A DNA stretch of 64,000 nucleotides from a virus. Below, in pieces: positions 110 to 44,028 of the stretch; positions within the stretch are counted from its first letter, which is position 1, and each line of letters starts with the position of its first letter. Below the pieces are notes generated by a model. The model ran no database searches, was not told where the DNA came from, and was given only the letters and a program-made list of their open reading frames with translations. The stretch lies in IMG/VR virus record IMGVR_UViG_3300002334_000292. One strand, 5' to 3'. The position numbers were made by a program, and so were the translations under genes.

Positions 110-201
110 TGGAAGAGAGTATGGGATTTGAACCCATGAGACACACAATGGTCTATCAAGGTAGCAACCTGACGCCTTAAGCCTGACTCAGCCAACTCTC
201 C
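110..201 (-). tRNA. tRNA, type II (long variable arm); anticodon not resolved by eye
   Basis: Minus-sense 7-bp acceptor GGAGAGT/ACTCTCT, T-arm ATGGG-TTCAAAT-CCCAT, CCA encoded, variable hairpin AGAC/GTCT, 92 nt. Confidence 0.5.
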
Positions 202-205
202 ATAT

Positions 206-295
206 AAGATGATGTAGGATTTGAACCTACGGTCCCCCGCAGGGGACTCCGATCACTACTGACCGGTGCTTTAAACCAGACTCAGCCAATCATCT
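206..295 (-). tRNA. tRNA, type II (long variable arm GTCCCC-TGC-GGGGGAC); anticodon loop irregular
   Basis: Perfect acceptor AGATGAT/ATCATCT, T-arm GTAGG-TTCAAAT-CCTAC; anticodon stem CCGGTC/GATCGG with a 6-8 nt loop. Confidence 0.5.
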
Positions 296-447
296 TAATT
301 CAATTTAACTGATACGAATCCTTTTTCGTTCAGCTCGGCAACCAGTTCGCGTCCACGTATTACTGCAGCTTTTGCTTCTGGTGTTGCATCCGTAGTTTCC
401 ACTTGGCGCTCGAAAGCAAGGAATTCTAATTTTGATAATACGGTCAT
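295..447 (-). CDS. small hypothetical protein (~50 aa, MTVLSKLEFLAFERQ...)
   Basis: Open frame with GGAGG 9 nt upstream of ATG; not in the supplied track, which lists a different frame at 305-499. Confidence 0.4.
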   Translation of the reverse strand: MTVLSKLEFLAFERQVETTDATPEAKAAVIRGRELVAELNEKGFVSVKLN

Positions 448-572
448 ATTGTTGCCTCCACAATACACTAGCTCGGTTTGTGTCGCCTGTAGGCAACATT
501 ATAAATCGTCTTTAATGGAGTGTTACGTGGTGCACCATACCATTAAAGCAGAATTAGTGTCAGAAGTAACCT

Positions 573-600
573 GCCACTTCTGACACTTTGTGCCGGGTGT
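573..600 (-). terminator. Perfect 10-bp inverted repeat hairpin (TGTCAGAAGT...ACTTCTGACA), possible processing or terminator element
   Basis: Seen in sequence; the downstream U-run on the minus sense is weak. Confidence 0.25.
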
Positions 601-633
601 GGGCGCTTAGTGGGTCAAAATTGACCGGTTATA

Positions 634-720
634 ATGGAAGAGAGCTGAGGTCCCGCCCCCCATACCCGTTAAGGCACCTTTGGTTTTCAAGGCCAAGTCA
701 CACCTCGTGCGATTAACTCT
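634..720 (-). pseudogene. tRNA-like element, paralog of the tRNA at 110-201, lacking a canonical T-loop (possible pseudo-tRNA)
   Basis: Same acceptor ends GGAGAGT...CTCTCTTCCA as the 110-201 tRNA; internal arms do not fold canonically. Confidence 0.3.
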
Positions 721-727
721 CCGTATT

Positions 728-804
728 TGGAAGACCGGGTGGGATTTGAACCCACGAATGACGGATTAAAAGTCCGCTCTCTTAGACCACTTGAGTACCG
801 GTCC
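728..804 (-). tRNA. tRNA-Lys (anticodon UUU)
   Basis: Acceptor GGACCGG/CCGGTCT, D-stem CTC/GAG, anticodon stem GCGGA/TCCGT with loop CTTTTAA, T-arm GTGGG-TTCAAAT-CCCAC, CCA encoded. Confidence 0.75.
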
Positions 805-925
805 AAATGTAATAATTAGAAGTCCGTAGACGTTGGGAGCTACCCTGCCATCACATGTTAATTCATGTGCTTGTCGTATTCCATCACAGAACAGTGGACC
901 CGGATCATCGCGGAAGCATGTATTT

Positions 926-1001
926 TGGTGTCAATGGGAGTGTTTGAGACTCCGACCTTACCCGTATGAAGAGCATGCTCTACACTCTGAGCTACACTGA
1001 C
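926..1001 (-). tRNA. tRNA with CAU anticodon (Met, or Ile2 via lysidine)
   Basis: Acceptor GTCAGTG/CATTGAC, D-stem GCTC/GAGC, anticodon loop TTCATAC, CCA encoded; T-loop CTCAAAC is atypical. Confidence 0.55.
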
Positions 1002-1010
1002 ATATTCAAT

Positions 1011-1077
1011 TTGAGAGTGACGGAATCGAACCATCCTCGGTTGGCCAACCTGCTAGCCTGTACCAACAGGACTCTCA
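1011..1077 (-). pseudogene. tRNA-like element (67 nt) with canonical T-arm and acceptor but no recognisable anticodon arm
   Basis: Perfect acceptor TGAGAGT/ACTCTCA and T-arm GATGG-TTCGATT-CCGTC; internal region forms CCTGT-TGGT-ACAGG and GGTTGG/CCAACC palindromes instead of D and anticodon arms. Confidence 0.35.
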
Positions 1078-1082
1078 AAACT

Positions 1083-1162
1083 TGGTAGCGGGTGTTGGAT
1101 TTGAACCAACGATTTCCGATTTATGAGACCGGTGAGATTAGACCAGACTTCTCCAACCCGCA
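1083..1162 (-). tRNA. tRNA-Met (anticodon CAU), possibly initiator-like
   Basis: Acceptor TGCGGGT/ACCCGCT with a 1-72 mismatch, D-stem GAGA/TCTC, anticodon stem CCGGT/ATCGG with loop CTCATAA, T-arm GTTGG-TTCAAAT-CCAAC, CCA encoded. Confidence 0.65.
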
Positions 1163-1246
1163 ATAATTACTTACATGTTCATAAGTTGTAAAGAGATACT
1201 TGTCAACTTAAATATGGTCTAGTTTTAAAGGTCTAGTAACTTGATT

Positions 1247-1322
1247 TGGTTGTAAGTGCTGGACTCGAACCAGCGACCTGAGAATTATCGGTTCCCTGCT
1301 CTACCAACTGAGCTAACCTACA
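1247..1322 (-). tRNA. tRNA-Ile (anticodon GAU), with C33
   Basis: Acceptor TGTAGGT/ACTTACA, D-arm GCTC-AGTTGGTA-GAGC, anticodon loop CCGATAA, T-arm GCTGG-TTCGAGT-CCAGC, CCA encoded. Confidence 0.6.
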
Positions 1323-1449
1323 AAATTATGTGCGCACCGGTGATATTGGTTAACCACAAACTTCCCACTTGTATTAGCGTGGGTGCTATCATTTCAGCTT
1401 CGGTGCTATACCAGTCAAAGATTGAGGCCTTTAACCGGTAATTCTTAAT

Positions 1450-1525
1450 TGGCAGGAGGGGAAGGAATCGAACCCTCGACACGCGGGTTTGGAATCCGCT
1501 GCTCTACACACTGAGCTACACTCCT
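1450..1525 (-). tRNA. tRNA-Trp (anticodon CCA)
   Basis: Acceptor AGGAGTG/CCCTCCT, discriminator G, anticodon loop TTCCAAA, T-arm GAGGG-TTCGATT-CCTTC, CCA encoded. Confidence 0.7.
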
Positions 1526-1535
1526 ATATTTGTTT

Positions 1536-1605
1536 GTGGGCGGAGTGGAATTGAACCACTGTCTCCGGGGGTGTTTCGGCGATCTTCCAATTGATCTACT
1601 CGCCC
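1536..1605 (-). pseudogene. tRNA-like element (~70 nt) with D-arm and T-arm but no foldable anticodon stem
   Basis: GGGCGAG-TA-GATC-AATTGGAA-GATC, T-arm AGTGG-TTCAATT-CCACT; all 5-bp/7-nt anticodon registers fail, leaving only CCG/CGG with a 9-nt loop. Confidence 0.35.
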
Positions 1606-1609
1606 ATAT

Positions 1610-1685
1610 TGGTGGATAAGAAGGGGATCGAACCCTTAACCTCCGAATTGCAAATCCGGCGCTCTCCCATTTGAGCTACAAACCC
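1610..1685 (-). tRNA. tRNA-Ala (anticodon UGC)
   Basis: G3:U70 wobble and A73 (the Ala identity elements), anticodon stem CCGGA/TTCGG with loop TTTGCAA, T-arm AAGGG-TTCGATC-CCCTT, CCA encoded; two acceptor mismatches. Confidence 0.65.
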
Positions 1686-1696
1686 GTTGTCTTTAA

Positions 1697-1813
1697 GGTA
1701 GAATAAATTCAGGATTAGCTGATGCTGTTTCTACCGGAATTATTGCGCCAAGCTGTATAGCCGAGGCGATGAGTATCATTGAAATAAGTATCAGCCAACG
1801 TGCGTTTTTCATA
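1697..1813 (-). CDS. small hydrophobic peptide (38 aa, MKNARWLILISMILIASAIQLGAIIPVETASANPEFILP) nested in the tRNA cluster
   Basis: ORF with AGGAAA 8 nt upstream; signal-peptide or TM-like N-terminus; below the track threshold. Confidence 0.35.
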
Positions 1814-1826
1814 TTCATTTCCTTTT

Positions 1827-1901
1827 TGGTGCTAGAACCTGGATTCGAACCAAGACTTTAGTAGTTATGAGCTACTGGCTCTACCATTAAGCTACACTAG
1901 C
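1827..1901 (-). tRNA. tRNA with CAU anticodon (third CAU species; Met or Ile2)
   Basis: Acceptor GCTAGTG/TTCTAGC, D-stem GCTT/GAGC, perfect anticodon stem AGTAG/CTACT with loop CTCATAA, T-arm CTTGG-TTCGAAT-CCAGG, CCA encoded. Confidence 0.6.
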
Positions 1902-1979
1902 TAATATTCACACCCGGCAGCTTGAGCTGCTCCATTCATATCCACCGGTGATGTGCCCGGTGTGTTAACTTGGCAGCTA

Positions 1980-2054
1980 CGGCAGGAATCGAACCTGCGC
2001 TTCGCGCATTAACAGTGCGTTGACTTACCTCTTGCCTACATAGCTATATCCATA
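1980..2054 (-). tRNA. tRNA-Asn (anticodon GUU)
   Basis: Acceptor AGCTATG/CGTAGCT, discriminator G, anticodon loop CTGTTAA, T-arm GCAGG-TTCGATT-CCTGC, CCA encoded. Confidence 0.6.
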
Positions 2055-3345: not shown

Positions 3346-4275
3346 TCGTGTATTAGCATCGGAGGGTGTGCTTATTACCGGCTAGTTTTGTCTGCTTCGC
3401 ACGCTCTCTCGTGTAGCATACGCCCTGCCGGGCTGAGTTAGCGGCTCCGAATTCAAGCGACCGTTTCCAGAGTTGCCGCTATCTCCATCAGATATCTTCT
3501 TTTTAGAGGGACGTTTATCCTTTTCCGTCCGGCATCCGTGGGAGGATGGTCGAGCGGTCTTTGTGGTCAAGGTGCTGAGCTTTCGCTCTGCCGTTGTTTT
3601 CAGCTCTAGTTATCACACGTTAAGAGACGCGCGCCTATAAGTTTCGTTCGCTTACCGTTCCTAGACTATTGTCATGATAGGAAACCTTGATATTCTGGTC
3701 GGACAAGTAGGGGATTCTCCTACCATCGCATGCATGCCCTATCAGGGAGGGTTTGCCCGTTAACTGGCACCGAGGCGAGGTCGTAACCCTCTCTCTTGAC
3801 TTACTGAGCACCCGACTTTTGATCGTCGGTTCTGTTTCAGTCCGTAATCTGTATCTGCAGATCACTCGGTATAATTTATGAAGATTTCTGTTTCCAGGTC
3901 CTTTTCCATCTTCGAACCCATTCCATGGTAACTATGGTTGACGCTTACGCGGCAATTGCAAGTTCCATTTCAATTTTTACGTTATCATTTGCATTTAACG
4001 TGTGCGTTCTCGCCATAATCAAAGACAACTCAATATCATTCACAACCAGTCGATCCTATTTCATCCCCATCATAAACACACTCAATTTTCTCATCCTGCT
4101 GATACAGGGTAGTTACGAAAACCGGTCAGCGGGTATCAGCCAGCTTAGAGTGTGTTTGTGGTGGAGATGCTGGGTACTGCCCCCAGGTCCTAGTCTGCTA
4201 TCTACACTTAGCTTGTTACCGAAGTAACGCGCTTTGATTTATCCGTTATACGTGAAGGAAATCAGGGAGTCAACA

Positions 4276-9457: not shown

Positions 9458-11188
9458 TTATGTCCGGTTTTTATCTTGCTGATCTCTCACGAGTTTTCCC
9501 TGTAGATTTACCCCGGAATCATTGGAGTTAGGGTCGTTCGGGCTTTTGGTCAATTGCATTTTCTCCGCATTTGCTGCAGCGATTACGGCGGTTTTCTCCG
9601 CTTCTTTGGCCGCTTCTTTGGCTTTTTCTTCCTCCGCCTCGCGATCAAGCTTGGCTTCATCGGTCTCATGTTCGCGAGATTTTTCAGCTTCTTCTACCTG
9701 TTGCTGTGACTTGGCATCAGGGAAACCTTTTGCTTTTGCATCAACATCAGGGTTGTTCGGGAAGGACGCGGTTGATTTAAGAAGTTTCTTAAACTCGGCA
9801 ATTTCCAGCCAGTCAGGGATAACTTCGGCTTTCTTCATGTAATCAAAGAGCACTTCGATTGGAAGGATGCCATCGGCGTACATGCTTTGGATCGCACGGA
9901 ATTCCCGGGCGGCAACCTCTTTTAGCATGAAGTCTTTGTTGAATTCAATCGAAATCTTCATAGCCGCTGTCTTGTTCATGCTATCCCATTCAGCCCAGAG
10001 GCGTAGGATGTCAGTGAACGCTTCGTCAAGGCTCAAAGTCACTTCGAATAGAAGGGCTTGTTCGTTCCGGTCTTTCATGTTGACCTGGTTGTCAGATTCA
10101 GCCGTTGCCTGCACTTCCACACCAATCATGCGTCCCCCGAGGCTGGCGATGTGCCCTTGCTTCGTTTGGATCGCACTCTCCAAGAATTTCAGTCCATGCC
10201 CATTAAATTCCATTAATCCAGCTTTTTCACCGGATGGAAGCTCCCAAACACGGTCAGGCCCCAGTTCATATGTGTTTGTTTGGTCAGCAGAGGCTTTTGA
10301 CGCCCAAAATATAGGGAAGCCAGTGTAATAGCGCCCATGCTCCAGCTGAGCGTATGAGCGGTAGTGGGAAATGTTCATCGCTGCGATATCAAGCATCGGA
10401 GAGCGCTGCATATCCCATGGACCGGCTGTTGGTCCGATGATTTTGAATGGAATTCTTTTAAACTTCACGCCTCGTTTCGTTGGGACCTTCACTTCATCAG
10501 GGTCACCGTCGATATTTGGATATGTGGCTCCTTCTGCGAGCGTGCGATAAACTTCCTGCCTGTAAGTGCCGTTTGAAAGCATCAACACGCGGAATACCAC
10601 CTGATATGTGCGCGTATTGATTTCAGAAGTAGTTTCGATTTCTTCCATCTCCATCAACACGACTTTTGTCAGCTGTTCTCGTCCATTCACCACCTCAGAT
10701 TCCCAGTCGATGATTGATTCAGCAACGTACATGCAGAGATATGGGTCTCCACCATCGCTGGCATCAATCAAAACGCCTACACGTCCCATTTGAAGGACCT
10801 CCCGAGCTACTTCTTGTGTGAAGGAGCGCAGGCTCTGACCTTTTTTGGTGATTACATTGATTTTTTCTTTAAATGTCTTTGGTAGATCGTCGATTACTGG
10901 ATTTCTGCGAAAAATTGTACCCGATAAGGCTCCAACGGTACGCGCGACCATATTGAAGTATGTGGCGTTCTCGTTGTAGAGGGTGTATTGCTCGCTATCC
11001 ATGCCAGCCATTGCCGGTAGAAGCTCGATACCACGTTCTTTCACTGCGCGCTCGCCTTCGTAGGCATTGCGGATCATGCGCCAATCATCTTCGTAGTAGT
11101 GCACGTCTGGATGGGCCCAAGTCGGATAAGACGTGATGAGTGCTTCAATTTTAGCTTTTTTGTTGCCTGAGGGTGAGTATAGCGCCAT
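9458..11188 (-). CDS. hypothetical 576-aa protein with highly charged coiled-coil C-terminus (portal protein is one possibility, unsupported)
   Basis: Long ORF; C-terminal 100 aa is E/K/A-rich. Confidence 0.65.
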   Translation of the reverse strand: MALYSPSGNKKAKIEALITSYPTWAHPDVHYYEDDWRMIRNAYEGERAVKERGIELLPAMAGMDSEQYTLYNENATYFNMVARTVGALSGTIFRRNPVIDDLPKTFKEKINVITKKGQSLRSFTQEVAREVLQMGRVGVLIDASDGGDPYLCMYVAESIIDWESEVVNGREQLTKVVLMEMEEIETTSEINTRTYQVVFRVLMLSNGTYRQEVYRTLAEGATYPNIDGDPDEVKVPTKRGVKFKRIPFKIIGPTAGPWDMQRSPMLDIAAMNISHYRSYAQLEHGRYYTGFPIFWASKASADQTNTYELGPDRVWELPSGEKAGLMEFNGHGLKFLESAIQTKQGHIASLGGRMIGVEVQATAESDNQVNMKDRNEQALLFEVTLSLDEAFTDILRLWAEWDSMNKTAAMKISIEFNKDFMLKEVAAREFRAIQSMYADGILPIEVLFDYMKKAEVIPDWLEIAEFKKLLKSTASFPNNPDVDAKAKGFPDAKSQQQVEEAEKSREHETDEAKLDREAEEEKAKEAAKEAEKTAVIAAANAEKMQLTKSPNDPNSNDSGVNLQGKLVRDQQDKNRT

Positions 11189-11445
11189 TTGTGCGAATCC
11201 ATGTCTATGAATGAGTTAGGCGAATTGTCCATTAACCATAGCGAAAAGTCAAGTTTTTAATATAGTGGCTCAAACAATTTTTATGCAAAATATTTAATTT
11301 TAGAGGTAAGGGGTCGGCGTTTTTAAAGGGGTACTCCCCCCCTGTAGCTACATGAGAAGTGAAACTTTAAAAACTGATTCATTTGTTTTACAGTGAGGGG
11401 CGCGTTAACCATACCCCAGGGGGTACCCCCGCTTGGGTCCCCCGT

Positions 11446-11470
11446 TAACCTTAATAAATAAGGTTAACAA
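11446..11470. promoter_or_regulatory. Palindromic operator-like site GTTAACCTTA-N5-TAAGGTTAAC (copy 1)
   Basis: Perfect 10-bp inverted arms around a 5-bp spacer; same site recurs at 16126 and 17205. Confidence 0.55.
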
Positions 11471-11915
11471 ATGTGGTCAACAAACATGGTTAATTTTGTG
11501 TTAATTTGAGGACGGATGCTGCGTGTATTAGTTAAGATTCATTCCTAATTTTTTATTAATATTTTGGAGGGGGTGGGGGTACTCCCTTATATAAAAATAA
11601 TCATATGGTTAAGGCGTGGCTCATCAATATGTTGATGTGTTCCAGGCTCTGCCCATGTACACGCATGCAGTATGGCGCTCATCTACACATGATGTGCATG
11701 CACATGTGTATGTGCAGCCATGCCCCCTAATAGAGGGCTCATATATGGGCTCATACAACGGGGCTCATATGGGCAGGGTAGCAGGGGCAGGCATGTGCAT
11801 GTGATAGACAATAGCTCTATGCTAATGCGATATCATATATGCAGGGTATCAGGTGAATGTGTGGCTCATAGCCAAGGCTCGCACTATTCCATATATCACA
11901 TGTGCAATGGGACAG

Positions 11916-34682: not shown

Positions 34683-34932
34683 ACGGTACAAAATATGTGG
34701 ACCAACTTCTAGTGGAAATTTCTTTGTTTCTTATCATGTGTGGGGACCGTTCTGGAAAAAGTCTATTATGGATGGCTGGTACTATCCACGGCAATATGAC
34801 AGTTTTGCTACAGCAGAAATATATCTTAAAACTCAGCGCAAACAAGACGCAGTAATTGATGAGGCAGTTGCAGACGCAAAAATAAAAAAAGCACAACGAA
34901 GAAAAGATTACAAATGTCAGGAAATAAAATGA
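34674..34932 (+). CDS. hypothetical protein
   Basis: ORF. Confidence 0.4.
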
Positions 34933-35936
34933 GCAAGCAAACTCTCGGCGTCTTCATCGGACGCTTCCAACCATTTCACGCCGGTCATCTGGAAACAACC
35001 AGACAGGCGCTGGAGCTTTTTGATAAAGTGATTATCATTATTGGCTCGGCGGACGTACCGGCAACAACTAAAAATCCTTTGGATATAGAGGCGCGCTCAG
35101 CAATTATTACAGCAGCATTCACCACTGAGGAATTAGCACGTATCCACATCACCCGCGCAGACGACCATGACTACCAGCCAGGGCGCTGGATTGAACAGAT
35201 CAAAATTCTGGTAGAGTGGACTCATTCACCCGACCAGTGGGACATCACGCTGGTAGGACATCACAAAGATGAATCTTCATCTTATCTGGACTGGTTTCCA
35301 AATTGGAACTTCTACGAGTCTGAAAATTTCGATGGCATGGGTGCTACGACAATCCGTGATCAGTTTTTCAATGGCAGTTCACAATTTATTTCTCCGAATT
35401 TCTTCTGCAACGAAAAACATCGGGCAGAAGTGTTTGATCGGATGACGCCACTGGCAGATATTCTCAGACCGGAATGGTGCCTAATTCACGAATATGAGAG
35501 CATTTGGGGTAAAGGGCCTCACAGGACCGCTGACGCGCTTGTCGAGTGCAACGGTCATATCCTACTGATTGAACGCGGCCAAGCGCCCGGCAAAGGTCTT
35601 CTGGCGTTTCCCGGAGGCTTTCTGGAAAAAGGCGAGAGATTAATTGATGCTTCTATCCGAGAATTGATGGAAGAGACTAATATTGGTATCACAAAAAGTG
35701 AACTAATTGACTCTGCTTCACTTCCAATTGTGTTCGATGCCAAAAATCGCGATCCGCGCAGTTGGAATATCTCTGGGTTGACACATTTCAAAATTACGGC
35801 TACGACTTTACCAGACGTACACCCAGCAGACGATGCGGCAAAAACAAGCTGGTATCCAATCACCATGATGCATGGTAAAGGAAAATTATTCTTTGCGGAC
35901 CACTATCGAATTATTCAGAAACTTCTAAACGTTTAG
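34929..35936 (+). CDS. natV: Bifunctional NMN adenylyltransferase / Nudix hydrolase
   Basis: GRFQPFHAGH (HxGH nucleotidyltransferase motif) and Nudix box GGFLEKGERLIDASIRELMEETNIG. Confidence 0.8.
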   Translation: MSKQTLGVFIGRFQPFHAGHLETTRQALELFDKVIIIIGSADVPATTKNPLDIEARSAIITAAFTTEELARIHITRADDHDYQPGRWIEQIKILVEWTHSPDQWDITLVGHHKDESSSYLDWFPNWNFYESENFDGMGATTIRDQFFNGSSQFISPNFFCNEKHRAEVFDRMTPLADILRPEWCLIHEYESIWGKGPHRTADALVECNGHILLIERGQAPGKGLLAFPGGFLEKGERLIDASIRELMEETNIGITKSELIDSASLPIVFDAKNRDPRSWNISGLTHFKITATTLPDVHPADDAAKTSWYPITMMHGKGKLFFADHYRIIQKLLNV

Positions 35937-35944
35937 GAAATAAC

Positions 35945-36343
35945 ATGCCAGTCAATAAACAGAATATTGATATCTTGATAGACATCCTAAAAGATGAAGA
36001 AGTATTTTTTGATATGGCAGATTATCAAATCTATACATCGCCATCTTCATGCGGAACAGCTTCATGCGGAACAGCTTCCTGCCTATGTGGGCATATTAAT
36101 TATATATTGAACGGAGGTAAAATGGAACCTCAGGATTGGGGTAGACATAGTACAGCAAATAAGTTCTTGGGAATCTCGGACAGCGAAGGTAGGCTGTTAT
36201 TTTTACCGGAAGAGAAGGTCATGCCAGACATATATGGCGGCGATCTTTCACTTCAAAGAAAACTGGCGATAAATACATTACTGCATCTTAAAGAGACTGG
36301 CGAAGTTAACTGGTCTGATGCTAATCAAAAAATCGGAGCATAA
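35945..36343 (+). CDS. hypothetical protein with internal 15-bp tandem duplication (SCGTASCGTASC)
   Basis: ORF. Confidence 0.45.
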   Translation: MPVNKQNIDILIDILKDEEVFFDMADYQIYTSPSSCGTASCGTASCLCGHINYILNGGKMEPQDWGRHSTANKFLGISDSEGRLLFLPEEKVMPDIYGGDLSLQRKLAINTLLHLKETGEVNWSDANQKIGA

Positions 36344-36344
36344 C

Positions 36345-37751
36345 ATGACAGCCAATATTATTCTCGACACCGACAGCTACAAGCAAAGTCACCATCTGCA
36401 GGACCCACCCGGTACCACGCACAAATCGTTCTACATCACGGCGCGGGGAAACCCGGACACTGATTGTGAAGTTGCATTTCTGGGGCTGCAGCCGTACATC
36501 GAAAATATGCGCATCAACGCACAGAATATTGAAGAAGCGCAAGACGTTATTCCGAAGCACATCCCCGGGCTGGAATTCAATTTCGATGGCTGGCAAACAA
36601 TCCTCAATGAATTCGATGGCTTTCTTCCTATCGCCATTGATGCGCTGCCGGAAGGAACTGTTGTCGAACGTGGTACACCGATGTTGCAGACGCACAACAC
36701 CGATCCTCGTTTTCCTTGGCTCTGTGGGCATCAGGAAACTCGTATGCTCCGTTCGATCTGGTATCCATCTACGGTTGGTACCAAATCTCGTGGCTACAGG
36801 AGATTGATCGAAGAAGCTCTCCGCAAAACAGGTGGCGATGTTGACTCCGCTGTATTCAAGCTCCACGATTTCGGTGCGCGCGGCGTATCATCTCGTGAAT
36901 CTTCTGCCATCGGCGGCTGGGCGCATCTCACCAGTTTTCAAGGTACGGATACAATGATGGCGCTGCTACATGCTCGCCAATATTACAATTGTGATATGGC
37001 TGGATTTTCCATACCGGCGTCCGAACACTCAACAATGGCCTGTTGGGGTGAAGGGCGAGAGGTCGAAGCATACCGTCACATGCTGGAGACTTTTGGTCAC
37101 ACGATGTTTGGCACCGTCTCAGACACATGGGATATTGAAAACGCCTGTACAAATGTTTGGGGCAACACGCTCAGAGATGAAGTTATTGCAATTCTTGGTC
37201 AGCTTGTCGTCCGCCCCGACTCTGGCGCAGTAATCCCAATGGTGCTAGATTGTTTGGATCGCCTCGGTGTCCAGTTTGGTATTACCTTCAACAATGATGG
37301 CTTCAAAATGCTGCACGATAAAGTGCGGTTGATCCAAGGTGATGGACTTGACGATACTTCTTTACCCCTCCTGATTGGTGCTATTGCTGATGCATTGTGG
37401 TCACTCGATAATACTGCATTTGGTATGGGTGGCGGTCTGCTGCAGAAGCACAATCGTGATGATTATAAATGGGCGATGAAATGTAATGCTATCTCATATG
37501 GTGATGAGGTCTGGCATGGAGTCAACAAAGAACCAAAATCTGATCCAGGCAAAGCGTCTGCAAAAGGCAGAGCCTGGGTGAGCCAAGAAAATCATGTCTG
37601 GTATTCCAGCAGACATCAGCTATTAAGTTTTGAGGAAGATACAAATCCGGTCTTTCCTAATGCGCTCATCACTCATTATGTCAATGGCTTCACAACCATC
37701 GACGGTGACATGGAAGCTATTCGTGAAAGGGTTGCTCAAGATGTCAGATAA
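36345..37751 (+). CDS. nadV: Nicotinamide phosphoribosyltransferase
   Basis: N-terminal ILDTDSYK, HDFGARG, VRPDSGA motifs; GGAG RBS. Confidence 0.85.
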   Translation: MTANIILDTDSYKQSHHLQDPPGTTHKSFYITARGNPDTDCEVAFLGLQPYIENMRINAQNIEEAQDVIPKHIPGLEFNFDGWQTILNEFDGFLPIAIDALPEGTVVERGTPMLQTHNTDPRFPWLCGHQETRMLRSIWYPSTVGTKSRGYRRLIEEALRKTGGDVDSAVFKLHDFGARGVSSRESSAIGGWAHLTSFQGTDTMMALLHARQYYNCDMAGFSIPASEHSTMACWGEGREVEAYRHMLETFGHTMFGTVSDTWDIENACTNVWGNTLRDEVIAILGQLVVRPDSGAVIPMVLDCLDRLGVQFGITFNNDGFKMLHDKVRLIQGDGLDDTSLPLLIGAIADALWSLDNTAFGMGGGLLQKHNRDDYKWAMKCNAISYGDEVWHGVNKEPKSDPGKASAKGRAWVSQENHVWYSSRHQLLSFEEDTNPVFPNALITHYVNGFTTIDGDMEAIRERVAQDVR

Positions 37752-38184
37752 AACATCAAAAGTACATGTGGTGGATTTCGAAGGATTCCCACACGAAATA
37801 GTTGTTCATGTTGCAAACATAACTGTAATGGAAACTCAAACCGTCAGAGGTTTCGCATATGCGCAGATGCTGGCTGAGAAAACGCAAAGAGAAGCTGGCT
37901 GGTATGATGGCAAGGAATTCAGCTTCCCTGAAACCACGGCTTTGATCCATTCAGAACTGTCTGAGGCGCTGGAGGCAGATCGTAAAAATCTCATGGATGA
38001 TAAACTCCCGCACCGTCACGGCATTGAAGGAGAATGGGCAGATGCGTTTATCCGCATGCTGGCTGCTGGAGGTAAACAAGGATACAATCTTGGCGCTACG
38101 GTTGTCGAGAAAAACCGGTACAATATGGATCGTGCCGATCACAAAAAAGAAAACCGGGACAAGGCCGGTGGAAAGAGCTACTGA
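37740..38184 (+). CDS. MazG-like nucleoside triphosphate pyrophosphohydrolase
   Basis: All-alpha ELSEALEA...EGEWADAFIRML acidic EExxE/D pattern. Confidence 0.5.
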
Positions 38185-39528: not shown

Positions 39529-39589
39529 ACCTATAGGTTGACATTCCACGCCTAAAAGTAAACCTATAGTTATACAAATGGAGACGATA

Positions 39590-40132
39590 ATGACACACGA
39601 AACCAGACATGTAATGATCGACATCGAAACGCTTGGGACACAACCTGGCTCGGTTATCATTCAAATTGGGGCCAAGCGCTTTGATCCTCGCACCGGCTAT
39701 GTTTTTGTTAGAGATTTCGAGATGGGCATTGATCCAAATTACCCACCATCGCTCAACGCTATTATTGATGCAGAGACTTTGAAATGGTGGCTGCAGCAAG
39801 ACCCTAAAGTTCTGGCTAAAGTCATGTCCGGCACTCATAATATTGTCAATGGCATGCGTGGTCTTTCTGAATATTGTTCCGGTTGCACTCATTTTTGGGC
39901 TAAGTCACCAGACTTCGACATGGGTCTTCTGGGTTATTTTTATGGAAAGTATTACACATCAACGCCTTGGACATACAAGAATAGAATGGATGTGCGAACT
40001 GTGCTTGAAATGGCAGATGTAACACAGCCACCGGCAGTGACTCCACATGACGCCGTGTCCGATTGTGAGGCTCAAATCATAGGAGTGTTGACAGCTTACG
40101 AAAAATGCGGTAAGACTGTCGTACTCGCCTAG
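39590..40132 (+). CDS. DEDDh 3'-5' exonuclease (DnaQ-like)
   Basis: MIDIETLG (Exo I) and HDAVSDC (Exo III His-Asp). Confidence 0.6.
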   Translation: MTHETRHVMIDIETLGTQPGSVIIQIGAKRFDPRTGYVFVRDFEMGIDPNYPPSLNAIIDAETLKWWLQQDPKVLAKVMSGTHNIVNGMRGLSEYCSGCTHFWAKSPDFDMGLLGYFYGKYYTSTPWTYKNRMDVRTVLEMADVTQPPAVTPHDAVSDCEAQIIGVLTAYEKCGKTVVLA

Positions 40133-40340: not shown

Positions 40341-40634
40341 ATGAAAATAACTCAGCAAGGATCAAGAACAAACGTCACTATGACGTTTTCAAATGGGTAC
40401 AGCGTCAGTCTGACATCAGGCCACCGTGTAGGCTTGGAAGATTTTGGAATCATCTGGGCTGCATATTGGTCTGCAATCGACACCACCACAATCTCAGTTA
40501 ATGAGTGGATGTATGATGATGAAGCTACTAAGTTTCTTGATTACATGAGCAAACTGGAGCCAGTCAATAATACTGTTGACAGTAAAGAATATATCGACGC
40601 AGACATCATCAAAATTTTTGGAGGCAATGGATGA
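40341..40634 (+). CDS. hypothetical protein
   Basis: ORF with AAGGA RBS. Confidence 0.45.
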   Translation: MKITQQGSRTNVTMTFSNGYSVSLTSGHRVGLEDFGIIWAAYWSAIDTTTISVNEWMYDDEATKFLDYMSKLEPVNNTVDSKEYIDADIIKIFGGNG

Positions 40635-42046
40635 ACATCACCGGCAGACATTTAATCGAATGGGGTTTCAACCCCGGTCCATTGTTTCCTGTTATGTTGG
40701 CATATGCCAATCAGCAGACGTACATTGACGAGCGCAGTCTTGAAGGCATCAAAAACTTACTTTTGGCACAGGATGAATTCATTCCTGTACCAAAACTTGA
40801 GCTGAAACCTCTCAGCCTTGATCCCCTTGCCAATGTGACTTTCAACATCCTAACAACTGCTGGATGCGAATACGACCTAGATAACCTCTTGGCTGTAGAA
40901 AAAATCATGGGCAAACTCATGCGTACTCCGGTCGCCACTCGCGCAACTGTATTACCTGACGCCTGTCCTACTGGACCTAATTCAATGCCGGTTGGCACTG
41001 TTGTGGAAAGCCCACACATTCATCCCGGTTGGCACAGTGCCGATATCTGCTGCTCTATGTTCTTGACTGAGTACAAAAACGTAACCCCTGCTATCCTATT
41101 GGATGCGGTGAGTGATGCTGTGCATTTCGGCCCCGGTGGTCCAGACAGATATCGCATGACTGATGAATTGTTGGAAGCGTTCATGGGGAATTCATTCCTG
41201 AATGATCCACATATGTTGGACCTTGCAAACCGCCATCTTGGCAGTTCTGGCGATGGAAACCATTTTGCCTCGGTTGGCACTATGCAATCTAGCGGCAACA
41301 CTACTCTTGTAACTCACTCTGGTTCTCGCGGCCCTGGCGCTCGCCTATATAAAATTGGCATGAAGGCAGCTCAGAAATACACCAAGTCTATTTCTCCGGC
41401 TACCCATAAATCAAATGCTTGGATTGACTCTGAAAGCGCAGAAGGTATTGAATACTGGAAAGCTCTGCAGATCATGCGCGACTGGACTAAATTGAATCAT
41501 ACTTTGATTCATGCAAGTTCTAGTTATCGCGCTATGGCTAAGGCTAATAATATACGTACTGTTAACCGCTTCTGGAACGAACACAATTTCGTATTCAAGC
41601 GCAATGGCATGTTTCTGCATGGCAAAGGTGCGACTCCAGCCTTCGACGGTTGGGCAGATGATGCTAAAATGTTCACCATCATACCATTAAACGCCGCTGA
41701 GCCGATTCTAATCACTCGTGGCAGCGACAACCCTGATGCCCTTGGATTCGCTCCACACGGCGCAGGCAGGCTGATTTCACGCGCCCAGCACAAAAGAGAC
41801 CTAGTAGCCGTTGGTATCTCTGACGCGCAGGCTTTCGAAGAAGAAACTCGTGATATCGATATGAGGTTCTGGTCCGGCGAAGCTGACGTGACTGAGCTAC
41901 CATCCGCCTATAAAAATGCGTCGATGATCCGTGAAGGTATCAAAAAGTATGAGCTTGCACAGATCGTAGACCAAGTGTTGCCGTATGGATGCATCATGGG
42001 TGGTGTGTTCGATTGGCGAAATTATGCTAACGAGCAATTCAGCTAA
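40631..42046 (+). CDS. rtcB: RtcB-family RNA ligase
   Basis: GSSGDGNHFASVG, THSGSRGPGARLY, APHGAGR motifs; GGAGG RBS. Confidence 0.85.
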   Translation: MNITGRHLIEWGFNPGPLFPVMLAYANQQTYIDERSLEGIKNLLLAQDEFIPVPKLELKPLSLDPLANVTFNILTTAGCEYDLDNLLAVEKIMGKLMRTPVATRATVLPDACPTGPNSMPVGTVVESPHIHPGWHSADICCSMFLTEYKNVTPAILLDAVSDAVHFGPGGPDRYRMTDELLEAFMGNSFLNDPHMLDLANRHLGSSGDGNHFASVGTMQSSGNTTLVTHSGSRGPGARLYKIGMKAAQKYTKSISPATHKSNAWIDSESAEGIEYWKALQIMRDWTKLNHTLIHASSSYRAMAKANNIRTVNRFWNEHNFVFKRNGMFLHGKGATPAFDGWADDAKMFTIIPLNAAEPILITRGSDNPDALGFAPHGAGRLISRAQHKRDLVAVGISDAQAFEEETRDIDMRFWSGEADVTELPSAYKNASMIREGIKKYELAQIVDQVLPYGCIMGGVFDWRNYANEQFS

Positions 42047-42064
42047 ACAAATTGGAGTTTATAA

Positions 42065-42754
42065 ATGAAAAAACCATCGACAAGAGCTGATGGACTCGCT
42101 CGTGATATGATCGAAGGACGCCCAACGCGCCAGAGCAATCCATCTTCCTTGATGGAGTATGTTCGGAGCGGAGGTGACAAAGAACGCCTTGGCGGTGTAC
42201 TGGATCAGTTAGAGCAAGAGAAATCTGTACAGCCGACAACTGCCAAAATGACGATTGAGAAACTTATTGATTTGTGTAATACCACAAACGAACTTATTGA
42301 AGAAGCACTTTACGGCAGTGAAGAAGGCTATGCATGTACACGAACCGATGGCGAAGGAAACATATGCAAAGGTTTATTGGAATATTATCCTGATCATCCA
42401 GAGATGGGATGTTCATGCCACATAAACCCACCTTGCTCTTACTGCACCGATCAGCATTTAGAATGCCCGAAATGTGGATGGAAAGAAGAGTCAATTATTC
42501 ACATTATAAATGATCATGTAGTGTCAGTTAATAAAGACACCGGTGTGCTTACCAGCCATGGTCGGCGCAAGCTGGATAACACAAAAATCGATTATTATAT
42601 CAACTCCCACAGTAATTCATCTCAGATATGCGAAGGCGTATATCCTAAAGGGACAACACGAGCCGAAGTCTTAAAAAAAGTTGATGGCACTTTTGGGGGA
42701 AGATGGGAAAGTTTTGGCAACGGCAAATTTAAATTTATCGCGTACACTGATTAG
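42065..42754 (+). CDS. Cys-rich hypothetical protein (CSCHINPPCSYCTDQHLECPKCG)
   Basis: ORF with GGAG RBS. Confidence 0.5.
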   Translation: MKKPSTRADGLARDMIEGRPTRQSNPSSLMEYVRSGGDKERLGGVLDQLEQEKSVQPTTAKMTIEKLIDLCNTTNELIEEALYGSEEGYACTRTDGEGNICKGLLEYYPDHPEMGCSCHINPPCSYCTDQHLECPKCGWKEESIIHIINDHVVSVNKDTGVLTSHGRRKLDNTKIDYYINSHSNSSQICEGVYPKGTTRAEVLKKVDGTFGGRWESFGNGKFKFIAYTD

Positions 42755-42946
42755 GAGCATGCCATGAAATATACTATGAAGAAAAAAGAGCCACTAAACA
42801 CAAAAATATGGCACCGATGGTTTGCATGGCATCCTGTGATCACTCGACAGAATACTATTACATGGCTATCCTTTGTCTGCCGGAAACAAGAGTTCTGGCG
42901 TGGCGGTAGATGCTGGCACTATTCAAATACTGATGATTGAGGATTT

Positions 42947-43022
42947 TGGAGACATAGGTGGGAATCGAACCCACATGTGAAGATTTGCAGTCAACTGCGC
43001 TTACCGTTTCCGCCACTATGTC
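42947..43022 (-). tRNA. Solitary tRNA-like gene (possibly Cys-GCA) with two U-U mismatches in the anticodon stem
   Basis: Perfect acceptor GACATAG/CTATGTC, T-arm GTGGG-TTCGATT-CCCAC, CCA encoded; abuts the stop of the GGQ gene. Confidence 0.45.
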
Positions 43023-43374
43023 ATATTGTTTCTGTCCAGTTACCTGTGTCAGGATCGATAATCTCGACTTTTGTCTGGCGCAGCTGTTTATCAACTTTTG
43101 CATCCAGTCCATCGTACAACCCAAGTCTCTTGGCTGTCTCGATCTTATGCCATGCCTTGAATATGCCTGTGGCAGACATGCGCCTGAACGCTTCCATTTT
43201 GTTTCTGAGCTGAGACCGATGCTCTTCACAATTACCAACAGCACCAGAATCGATGTGAGTACACCGAACTGCGCTATCAGTTTTGTTACGCTTTTGACCA
43301 CCTTTGCCGGAACCTCGATAGAAGTCCCAGCGGCAGTCTTTAGCAGTTACAGAAAATAGAAGTTCTTTAGCCAT
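43021..43374 (-). CDS. GGQ-motif release-factor-domain protein (ArfB/PrfH-like peptidyl-tRNA hydrolase)
   Basis: GSGKGGQKRNKTDSAVRCTH matches the class I release factor GGQ loop; ~117 aa. Confidence 0.7.
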   Translation of the reverse strand: MAKELLFSVTAKDCRWDFYRGSGKGGQKRNKTDSAVRCTHIDSGAVGNCEEHRSQLRNKMEAFRRMSATGIFKAWHKIETAKRLGLYDGLDAKVDKQLRQTKVEIIDPDTGNWTETI

Positions 43375-43757
43375 TACGCTGCGCGGACCATAGGATCGGC
43401 GCATGAAGCAAAGTCACTAAGACGTTTTGCATTCTTGCGAGCGCGCTTGGCATGTGCCGCATTGATGCGTCCCTGATGCAGCTCGGCATTTTGCGCCGGA
43501 GACAAACAGGTGGGGTGAGCATAAATGATTGGAGGTCCGCCCCAGCGAGCAATCTTTTTCAGATGATCTGCAAAGACTGGCAGAAATCTATCTCGAAAAC
43601 CTTTGCGCTTCTGAACTGAAACGCGAGAGGTATTCACGGCGTCCATCATTGCGGCGAGGAAGCCATTTGAATATGGATTTGTGCGTTGAGGTACGCCAAG
43701 TGCAGCTGCTGCGCCGGATGACATAACAGCGTTTTTGAGGGATTTCAGTAGTGACAT
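43374..43757 (-). CDS. hypothetical protein, translationally coupled (TAATG) to the GGQ gene
   Basis: ORF. Confidence 0.5.
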   Translation of the reverse strand: MSLLKSLKNAVMSSGAAAALGVPQRTNPYSNGFLAAMMDAVNTSRVSVQKRKGFRDRFLPVFADHLKKIARWGGPPIIYAHPTCLSPAQNAELHQGRINAAHAKRARKNAKRLSDFASCADPMVRAA

Positions 43758-43797
43758 TTATTTCTCCTGTCGAGGTTAATATTACCCGAACATAGAG

Positions 43798-44028
43798 TTA
43801 ATCACTCTTTCTGTCAAGGTTGCTATCGAATGGGATGCAAGTGATATTCACTTCATTGATAAATGGTGGCTTGAAGCGAATCACTTCTGCAGCCACCCTC
43901 CGACATATATCCATAGAAGGAAAATTGCGTGGACTGAAATCCTGCTGATATTTGTCGTTGAGCATTAGCCCAGCTTCGCCATAAATCATGCCGACCAGTA
44001 CAAAGACTGTCATTGTTACGCCTGTCAT
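43798..44028 (-). CDS. small membrane protein
   Basis: ORF. Confidence 0.4.
   Translation of the reverse strand: MTGVTMTVFVLVGMIYGEAGLMLNDKYQQDFSPRNFPSMDICRRVAAEVIRFKPPFINEVNITCIPFDSNLDRKSD

Follow-up and report, generated by a model that had tools for sequence, protein, structure and literature searches.

The PrfH-RtcB2 operon of bacteria places a peptidyl hydrolase bearing the GGQ loop close to an RtcB-family RNA ligase (PMC9304027, PMC9223846, PMC12829566); a separate RNA-recognition domain allows PrfH to read the damaged decoding centre (PMC12829566). For jumbo phages, Iyer et al. proposed a toolkit of tRNAs, RtcB/Rnl ligases and PTH2 that would act against host nucleases by which translation is jammed (PMC7824862). 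One class of Mycobacterium tRNA arrays has an RF-1-domain gene as its core coding sequence, with extra rescue capacity as the suggested role, and the arrays of cluster C additionally encode a Pth2-like hydrolase (PMC5966550). Here we analysed 64,000 nt of viral DNA (IMG/VR record IMGVR_UViG_3300002334_000292; this whole stretch is referred to as the window), in which a gene for an RtcB RNA ligase lies near a gene for a small release-factor-like protein (the GGQ protein) and a tRNA-Cys gene. An initial annotation, made from the letters of the window, had read the three as an RNA-repair and ribosome-rescue module resembling PrfH and RtcB2. The general role in RNA repair and ribosome rescue was reasonable; a coupled module of that type was not borne out, the pair recurring in 3 of 62 GGQ lineages and at none of 80 RtcB loci. 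RtcB and the GGQ protein are neither an obligate pair nor a ribosome-repair operon of the PrfH/RtcB2 type. The reading that we prefer, with a probability of roughly 55%, is that RtcB, the GGQ gene and the phage tRNAs with their transfer-messenger RNA (tmRNA) are independent translation-support accessory genes in an island for host takeover and counter-defence. Because the neighbours of RtcB and the GGQ gene are also of accessory types, the closeness of the two is better accounted for by a common island than by an operon of their own.

The neighbourhood of the GGQ gene was compared across phages using 100 loci of GGQ relatives, each taken with flanks of up to 10 kb. De-duplication at 85% GGQ identity left 62 lineages, of which the window is one, and lineage counts throughout refer to this reduced set of GGQ-family loci. 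Loci with the nearest relatives of RtcB (80 in number, 40-53% identity) served as the comparison set, which is conservative because RtcB is itself an RNA-repair gene. A tRNA or tmRNA was present within 10 kb in 26 of the 62 GGQ lineages and in 23 of the 80 RtcB loci, and five or more tRNAs within this distance were found in 12/62 versus 4/80 (Fisher p = 0.014). The difference was larger at close range: 12 GGQ lineages had a tRNA within 1 kb compared with 6 RtcB loci, and 9 had one within 100 bp compared with a single RtcB locus (p = 0.0026). Abutment of the GGQ gene and a tRNA was observed 9 times, whereas 4.3 were expected for a random same-strand open reading frame (ORF) in its own 20-kb locus (z = 2.7). 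The tRNAs within 1 kb always lay on the GGQ strand, with locus L044 as the exception among the 100 loci before de-duplication, and the adjacent isotypes varied (Lys, Pro, Val, Gln, Cys, Thr and Ser). No sharp peak of tRNA density was seen beside the GGQ gene in the 62 lineages, the density being alike across the first 5 kb, because the tRNA arrays are broad. A phage tmRNA was located within 10 kb in three lineages (loci L009-L011, L029 and L073). The tRNA-Cys gene that follows the GGQ gene in the window is one instance of this recurrent GGQ-tRNA arrangement.

The tRNA-Cys(GCA) was called by ARAGORN and scored 53.7 bits against Rfam RF00005 (cut-off 29); as read off the sequence, its 7-bp acceptor stem is perfect, the discriminator is U73 and CCA is encoded. 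Its first two bases are the G and A of the UGA stop codon of the GGQ gene, the 5' end (G43022) being the second base of that stop. The tRNA-like gene of the initial annotation was therefore a genuine tRNA, but it overlapped the stop codon by 2 nt and did not start after it. In the window, L062 and L069 a tRNA begins within the GGQ stop codon or upstream of it, and in six more lineages it begins 0-18 nt after the stop, giving about nine lineages in which the GGQ stop falls within -10 to +18 nt of the tRNA 5' end. A 5' end at or inside the stop was also listed for L059, L042 and L067. Junctions within 20 nt accounted for 39% of the GGQ cases and 32% of those formed by other ORFs at the same loci. 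Being general to the compact tRNA regions of phages, the tight junction was not counted as evidence. Control dependent on tmRNA is known for ArfA and BrfA. In a speculative variant, RNase P cleavage would leave a GGQ mRNA that lacks a stop codon or ends in one, and the output of the gene would be tied to tmRNA capacity, as for ArfA. This variant has no specific support, and such autoregulation through a non-stop mRNA was dropped because equally tight junctions occurred at 32% of the other ORF-tRNA pairs.

Nine further tRNAs and an alpha-type tmRNA were found in the rest of the window. The tmRNA, a permuted two-piece molecule, is 39 kb from the GGQ gene and adjoins the nine-tRNA cluster; its alpha type points to an alphaproteobacterial host. 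One 92-nt tRNA gene was given a four-base anticodon by ARAGORN. This gene probably encodes a class II tRNA-Tyr(GUA) whose loop was set wrongly, the alternative being an 8-nt anticodon loop.

The GGQ protein contains GSGKGGQKRNKTDSAV and matched the Pfam RF-1 profile (expectation value, E, 1.7e-19; 70.3 bits against a cut-off of 35), showing that it belongs to the RF-1 family. The match covered residues 7-68 of the 117-aa protein, equivalent to residues 17-78 of the 127-aa ORF that was submitted. The phage family phrog_3122 was matched at E 8.1e-27, with residues 9-125 of the submitted ORF aligned to profile positions 17-129 of 136. The 117-aa start was favoured over the 127-aa alternative because the homologues begin at the same MxKELLFSV. 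In an alignment of 42 homologues, G25, G26 and Q27 were invariant, and so were D13, C14, C38, H40, S43-G44-A45, G47, Q55, N58, F63, M66, F72, W75 and G85. At the positions of C14 and C38, canonical release factors have Leu or Ile; D13, C14, C38 and H40 might pair structurally or make up a site for metal binding or redox chemistry.

Several models of known release and rescue factors were reached over a part of their length only. The protein scored 70.7 bits with the RF2 model prfB (cut-off 370), matching around model positions 217-284, and 58.8 bits with the RF1 model prfA (cut-off 423), where the GGQ core alone was aligned. With just 117 aa it is not a full class I release factor (RF1/RF2 with domains 1, 2 and 4 and the PxT/SPF codon-recognition motifs; about 350 aa). 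The PrfH model (TIGR03072/IPR017509) gave 56.2 bits against 166.65 and was matched only at positions 103-161 of 200. There are no residues N-terminal to the GGQ domain, and hence the PrfH ribosome-RNA recognition domain (RRD) is missing. The ArfB model NF006718 gave 32.9 bits against 100, over model positions 11-40 only. The last 45 residues carry a net charge of 0 (family range -5 to +4), compared with approximately +12 in E. coli ArfB. To our knowledge, all known non-stop rescue factors place a basic element in the mRNA channel. When a profile built from the 42 homologues was compared with PDB entries, RF2/RF1 domain 3 was matched best, followed by PrfH, mitochondrial mtRF-R (C12orf65; residues 6-77, E 4e-10) and, far behind, ArfB. 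The AlphaFold (AF2) model had a mean predicted local distance difference test score (pLDDT) of 85.5, and in it two helices and a small hairpin come after the beta-sheet and helix of the GGQ domain. Foldseek matched this model to RF2/RF1 domain 3 on the ribosome (E about 3e-6) and also to mtRF-R (7a5h_C). Altogether, the protein is predicted to be a codon-independent peptidyl-tRNA hydrolase. The initial annotation was right to describe a protein of about 117 aa with the GGQ loop of class I release factors, in profile score as well as in fold; the comparison that it drew with ArfB/PrfH-like proteins failed with both models.

The small GGQ family is nearly confined to phages. Members of phrog_3122, like the window protein, have about 110-130 aa and the conserved motifs LLFSVTAKDC...GSGKGGQ...RCTH..SGAVG. 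A set of 5.8 billion proteins yielded 586 homologues, nearly all of 105-150 aa. Clustering at 50% identity gave 67 clusters below E 1e-30, and about 150 or more were listed below 3e-26, all small and, with few exceptions, aligned over the greater part of their length. IMG/VR contributed more than 513 relatives. The gene is carried by 255 phage records, of which 206 are Mycobacterium phages, in which it is routinely annotated as 'RF-1 domain peptide chain release factor'. Cluster C mycobacteriophages are the largest isolated group with the gene, which there lies between DNA polymerase and UvsX. Among 185,579 bacterial and archaeal species genomes, 526 loci were matched; three of the best 80 were near full-length, all of them on contigs of metagenome-assembled genomes, and the remaining loci of these 80 matched only the core of host RF1/RF2, roughly residues 13-66 and rarely to about 96. 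One phage locus (L016) has two GGQ-family genes (10001-10348 and 11273-11620) that are 0.9 kb apart and about 4.4 kb downstream of an 11-tRNA array.

RtcB matched Pfam PF01139 at E 5.6e-30 (105.3 bits, cut-off 27), indicating family membership, and phrog_1075 ('tRNA splicing ligase') at E 4.8e-76 over residues 2-468, as expected from its earlier description as a full-length RtcB. In an alignment of 17 relatives, D110, C141, N210-H211, H229, H318-N319, H376, R380 and R384 were invariant and D138 nearly so. A profile of these relatives matched Pyrococcus horikoshii RtcB (E 1.5e-39, residues 38-478), with D138, C141, N210-H211, H229 and H376 aligned to D95, C98, N202-H203, H234 and H404. In the P. 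horikoshii enzyme, D95, C98, H203, H234, H329 and H404 are the metal ligands and the guanylylated His of the published structures. The HN motif H318-N319 was invariant, and the automatic alignment at this site was ambiguous, shifted by a shorter hairpin. Judged from these alignments the catalytic set is intact; absence of these residues had been named as a point that would speak against the initial annotation. The E. coli-type RtcB equivalog NF007153 was not reached (57.8 bits, cut-off 407), and the closest RtcBs of isolates were those of Rhizobium, Cellulophaga and Tenacibaculum phages (40-47% identity). By its similarities the window RtcB is placed in a divergent phage clade. Residues 109-113 read PDACP in this clade and PDxH in archaeal and bacterial RtcBs, Cys112 taking the position of P. 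horikoshii His67; the change was nearly invariant among the 17 relatives.

In class I release factors and ArfB, the GGQ loop cleaves the ester bond of P-site peptidyl-tRNA in the peptidyl-transferase centre. The GGQ protein of the window would enter the A site of ribosomes that cannot continue and, with no codon read, hydrolyse the peptidyl-tRNA, so that ribosome and tRNA are released. Its reaction would be codon-independent because it has no decoding domain. The gene is probably co-transcribed with tRNA-Cys, as its relatives would be with the tRNAs of their arrays. The linkage to tRNA arrays and tmRNAs suggests production of the protein alongside phage tRNAs, so that ribosomes and tRNAs stay in circulation under disturbed translation, as when anticodon nucleases are active or host RNA is degraded. 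RtcB joins 2',3'-cyclic-phosphate or 3'-phosphate ends to 5'-OH ends, and its likeliest substrates would be tRNAs that anticodon nucleases have cleaved. Host components would be replaced or supplemented by the tRNAs and tmRNA of the phage. When tRNAs are cleaved and ribosomes jammed, for instance, both RtcB and the GGQ protein may be of help.

Several observations weigh against this reading of separate support genes. The GGQ protein has no known sensor of stalled ribosomes (no codon-recognition or RRD domain and no basic tail), and nothing in its domain make-up accounts for how it would find its target and spare normal translation. No tRNA was present within 10 kb in 36 of the 62 GGQ lineages, and close GGQ relatives also occur in small phages that have no tRNA arrays. 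Locus L030 holds the closest known relative of both window proteins (RtcB, 56% identity; GGQ protein, 67%), and RtcB and the GGQ gene may have been inherited or moved together in this lineage. Experimental work on any member of the small phage GGQ family was not found in the searchable literature, within which the initial annotation's remark that the combination is uncharacterised in phage also holds.

A functional pair as in PrfH-RtcB2, with the GGQ protein releasing the peptide from a ribosome jammed by cleaved rRNA or a cleaved P-site tRNA and RtcB resealing the RNA, was judged unlikely. The two genes are within 1 kb of each other in the window; they are convergent, as the initial annotation had it, with 975 nt between their 3' ends, and two ORFs and a tRNA lie in between, so they do not form an operon. 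RtcB was found within about 10 kb of the GGQ gene in three of the 62 lineages, namely the window, a metagenomic phage (L030-L032) and the cluster M mycobacteriophage Nanosmite. In L030-L032 RtcB starts 521 bp downstream of the GGQ gene on the same strand, and these loci encode the closest relatives of both proteins although the flanks are mostly unrelated, a MazG-like pyrophosphatase alone being common to the window and L030. Nanosmite has a 22-tRNA array, then RtcB and, 5.1 kb on, the RF-1 gene, all on a single strand. As RtcB is present in about 1% of phage records, 3/62 exceeds the naive background; this enrichment is, however, confounded because RtcB and GGQ genes both favour tRNA-rich phages. 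The other 59 lineages had no RtcB within 10 kb, and in the reciprocal test none of the 80 closest RtcB loci had a GGQ-family gene within 10 kb. Lack of conservation across related phages was what the initial annotation had itself held to be damaging to the module, and the pair was largely not conserved. RtcB was absent from the flanks of the next-closest GGQ relatives (64-65% identity; L033, L034 and contigs of P0003, P0007 and P0009), two of which belong to small phages that have a T7-like module for replication or a genome of 36 kb. Cluster C mycobacteriophages have the GGQ gene but were not seen among the RtcB matches; in an even sample drawn from the 556 such matches, all 21 Mycobacterium entries were genomes of 51-82 kb. 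These absences in small sets of loci are meaningful because the window RtcB, used as a query, reached RtcBs of 24-29% identity in a 2.3-Gb database. The pairing is further opposed by the missing RRD, the domain with which PrfH recognises the damaged decoding centre (PMC12829566). A 75-aa RF-1-like ORF near RtcB in L160 (6805-7032, +), an IMG/VR contig, was rejected as a GGQ candidate, being without GGQ and of another family. It stands beside a DEDDh exonuclease and 3 kb upstream of RtcB, and may be a non-catalytic release-factor-domain protein.

The remaining alternatives concern the action of the GGQ protein itself. Action on peptidyl-tRNA held by a split 50S subunit, in the way of mtRF-R with MTRES1, or recycling of peptidyl-tRNA that keeps the phage tRNA pool usable, would suit a protein with no sensor for the decoding site or the mRNA channel. 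It would also suit the mtRF-R matches, and the linkage to tRNA genes fits tRNA recycling, as does the Pth2-like hydrolase of the cluster C arrays (PMC5966550). In sequence and fold, however, the protein resembles mtRF-R less than it does RF2/RF1 domain 3, the neighbouring genes gave no conserved partner, S4-like or otherwise, and the present data do not separate 70S from 50S substrates; we regard this possibility as improbable. That the GGQ protein instead shuts off or modulates host translation, by premature release on host ribosomes or competition with host release and rescue factors, was considered highly improbable. A GGQ domain with no substrate discrimination is expected to abort elongation, and the gene also occurs among the early or replication genes of small phages without tRNAs, but indiscriminate release would hurt phage translation as well, and the association with tRNA arrays and tmRNA points to translation support. 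We also think it doubtful that the small phage GGQ proteins, with neither a decoding or RRD domain nor a basic tail for the mRNA channel, are a distinct phage-borne class of release factor, expressed from tRNA operons and clearing ribosomes jammed by host defences that cut or deplete tRNAs, while in the few lineages with RtcB nearby this ligase religates the freed halves.

The features of the locus and of the remaining window that are mentioned in the text are listed below.

Table 1. Positions of the features discussed, numbered from the first nucleotide of the window.
Feature	Coordinates	Strand	Basis or remark
Cluster of nine tRNAs	110-2045		adjoined by tmRNA
tRNA, 92 nt	205-296	-	ARAGORN anticodon 'gtag'
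tmRNA, alpha-type	3854-4268	-	tag ANDNVKIEMELAIAA
NMNAT/Nudix	34914-35936	+	NAD+ salvage pair, 5' of locus
NAMPT	36318-37751	+	NAD+ salvage pair, 5' of locus
MazG-like pyrophosphatase	37630-38184	+	after NAMPT
Rv2179c-like 3'-5' exoribonuclease (DEDDh type)	39578..40132	+	PF16473 E 2e-31; phrog_255 'exonuclease'
97-aa ORF	40341..40634	+	stop shares 4 nt with RtcB start; no Pfam/PHROG match
RtcB RNA ligase (3'-P/2',3'-cyclic-P with 5'-OH), 471 aa, assigned to divergent phage clade	40631..42046	+	PF01139, phrog_1075
229-aa Cys-rich protein	42065..42754	+	phrog_22771 E 1.3e-43; no Pfam match
58-aa small protein	42764..42940	+	homologues in phage loci L077, L087; PHROG matches weak only
tRNA-Cys(GCA), 76 nt	42947..43022	-	ARAGORN; Rfam RF00005
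117-aa stand-alone GGQ (RF-1 domain) protein	43021..43374	-	PF00472, phrog_3122
127-aa ORF (ORF127)	43374..43757	-	coupled by TAATG to GGQ gene
Sigma-70-like site TTGACA-17-TATGTT, best of region	43789..43817	-	32 nt 5' of ORF127 start

ORF127 lies directly upstream of the GGQ gene. Its stop codon TAA (43376-43374) overlaps the GGQ start codon ATG (43374-43372) in the junction TAATG, in agreement with the coupling to an upstream gene reported in the initial annotation. ORF127 had no family match, matched only itself among the 5.8 billion proteins, and had no homologue in the 100 related GGQ loci. When ORFs within 3 kb of the GGQ gene were clustered, none was common to more than 5 of the 62 lineages. 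A 76-aa 'RNA binding protein' in L102 (4774-5004; Mycobacterium phage EniyanLRS gp128) shares 4 nt with the start of the RF-1 gene; it was rejected as a conserved GGQ partner, having no S4 or other Pfam domain and being unlike ORF127. The sigma-70-like site upstream of ORF127 is a possible promoter of an ORF127-GGQ-tRNA-Cys transcript. Such sites were as frequent in the region as expected by chance (10 found, 8.9 expected), and the position of this one is for that reason the sole argument from which we infer co-transcription of the three.

On the other strand, the exoribonuclease gene is located 500 bp 5' of RtcB and is a context gene whose linkage to RtcB is not shown; no homologue was present near RtcB in the 80 related RtcB loci. 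A homologue of the 229-aa Cys-rich protein adjoins RtcB in only one of these 80 loci (L161), and the 58-aa ORF is probably a real gene. Accessory-type genes around the locus include NAMPT, NMNAT/Nudix, the pyrophosphatase, the 3'-5' exoribonuclease and a thioredoxin, and the region 34914-38184 looks like a counter-defence and accessory island. In L030 and L033, homologues of the MazG-like pyrophosphatase are located at a distance of 1-2 kb to the GGQ gene. A near-identical phage genome was not detected by megablast among 50,697 phage records; proteins identical to those of the window were present in 7 contigs of the Joint Genome Institute (JGI), although no public contig with the exact proteins was located.

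Had it been borne out, the module proposed at the outset would have given phages a counterpart of the only known ribosome-repair system; the evidence speaks otherwise. The more modest outcome is a GGQ protein that is widespread, specific to phages and recurrent within their tRNA arrays. To learn how a bare GGQ domain chooses stalled ribosomes, and whether it helps phages to evade defences that cleave tRNAs, would extend what is known of phage counter-defence in translation. Both protein families are already annotated in phages, and published work covers the tRNA association as well as the toolkit concept.

The locus resembles the bacterial PrfH-RtcB2 operon in having a GGQ peptidyl hydrolase with an RtcB-family ligase close by, both with intact catalytic motifs. 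However, PrfH has about 200 aa and a domain that reads the colicin E3 cut, whereas the window protein is a GGQ domain only; the window genes are convergent, and the pairing is absent from 59/62 GGQ lineages and 80/80 RtcB loci, which places the locus outside this module. With ArfB (YaeJ)/ICT1 the protein shares a small GGQ domain followed by a C-terminal extension, the absence of a codon-recognition domain, and an expected codon-independent hydrolysis of peptidyl-tRNA. It differs from them in having neither the Lys/Arg-rich tail for the mRNA channel nor the ArfB-type insert in the GGQ domain, and in a sequence nearer to RF1/RF2 domain 3. The mtRF-R (C12orf65)/MTRES1 system likewise lacks a decoding domain and joins a GGQ domain to a helical extension; a partner resembling MTRES1, Hsp15 or RqcP was neither found nearby nor conserved at GGQ loci, and the similarity is weaker than that to RF1/RF2. 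The logic of self-encoded tRNAs, an RNA ligase and a peptidyl-tRNA hydrolase is that of the jumbo-phage toolkit (PMC7824862), although the hydrolase of the window is a bacterial-type GGQ domain and not PTH2, and the window phage adds a tmRNA. Full-length matches at 40-46% identity, equal length and equal invariant motifs were obtained with the phrog_3122 phage family (for example, Bxz1/Catera gp202 and Nanosmite gp140). The cluster C gene is away from RtcB and the tRNA array, whereas that of the window is end-to-end with tRNA-Cys and near RtcB. The window adds one further example to this family, with an unusually compact GGQ-tRNA junction.

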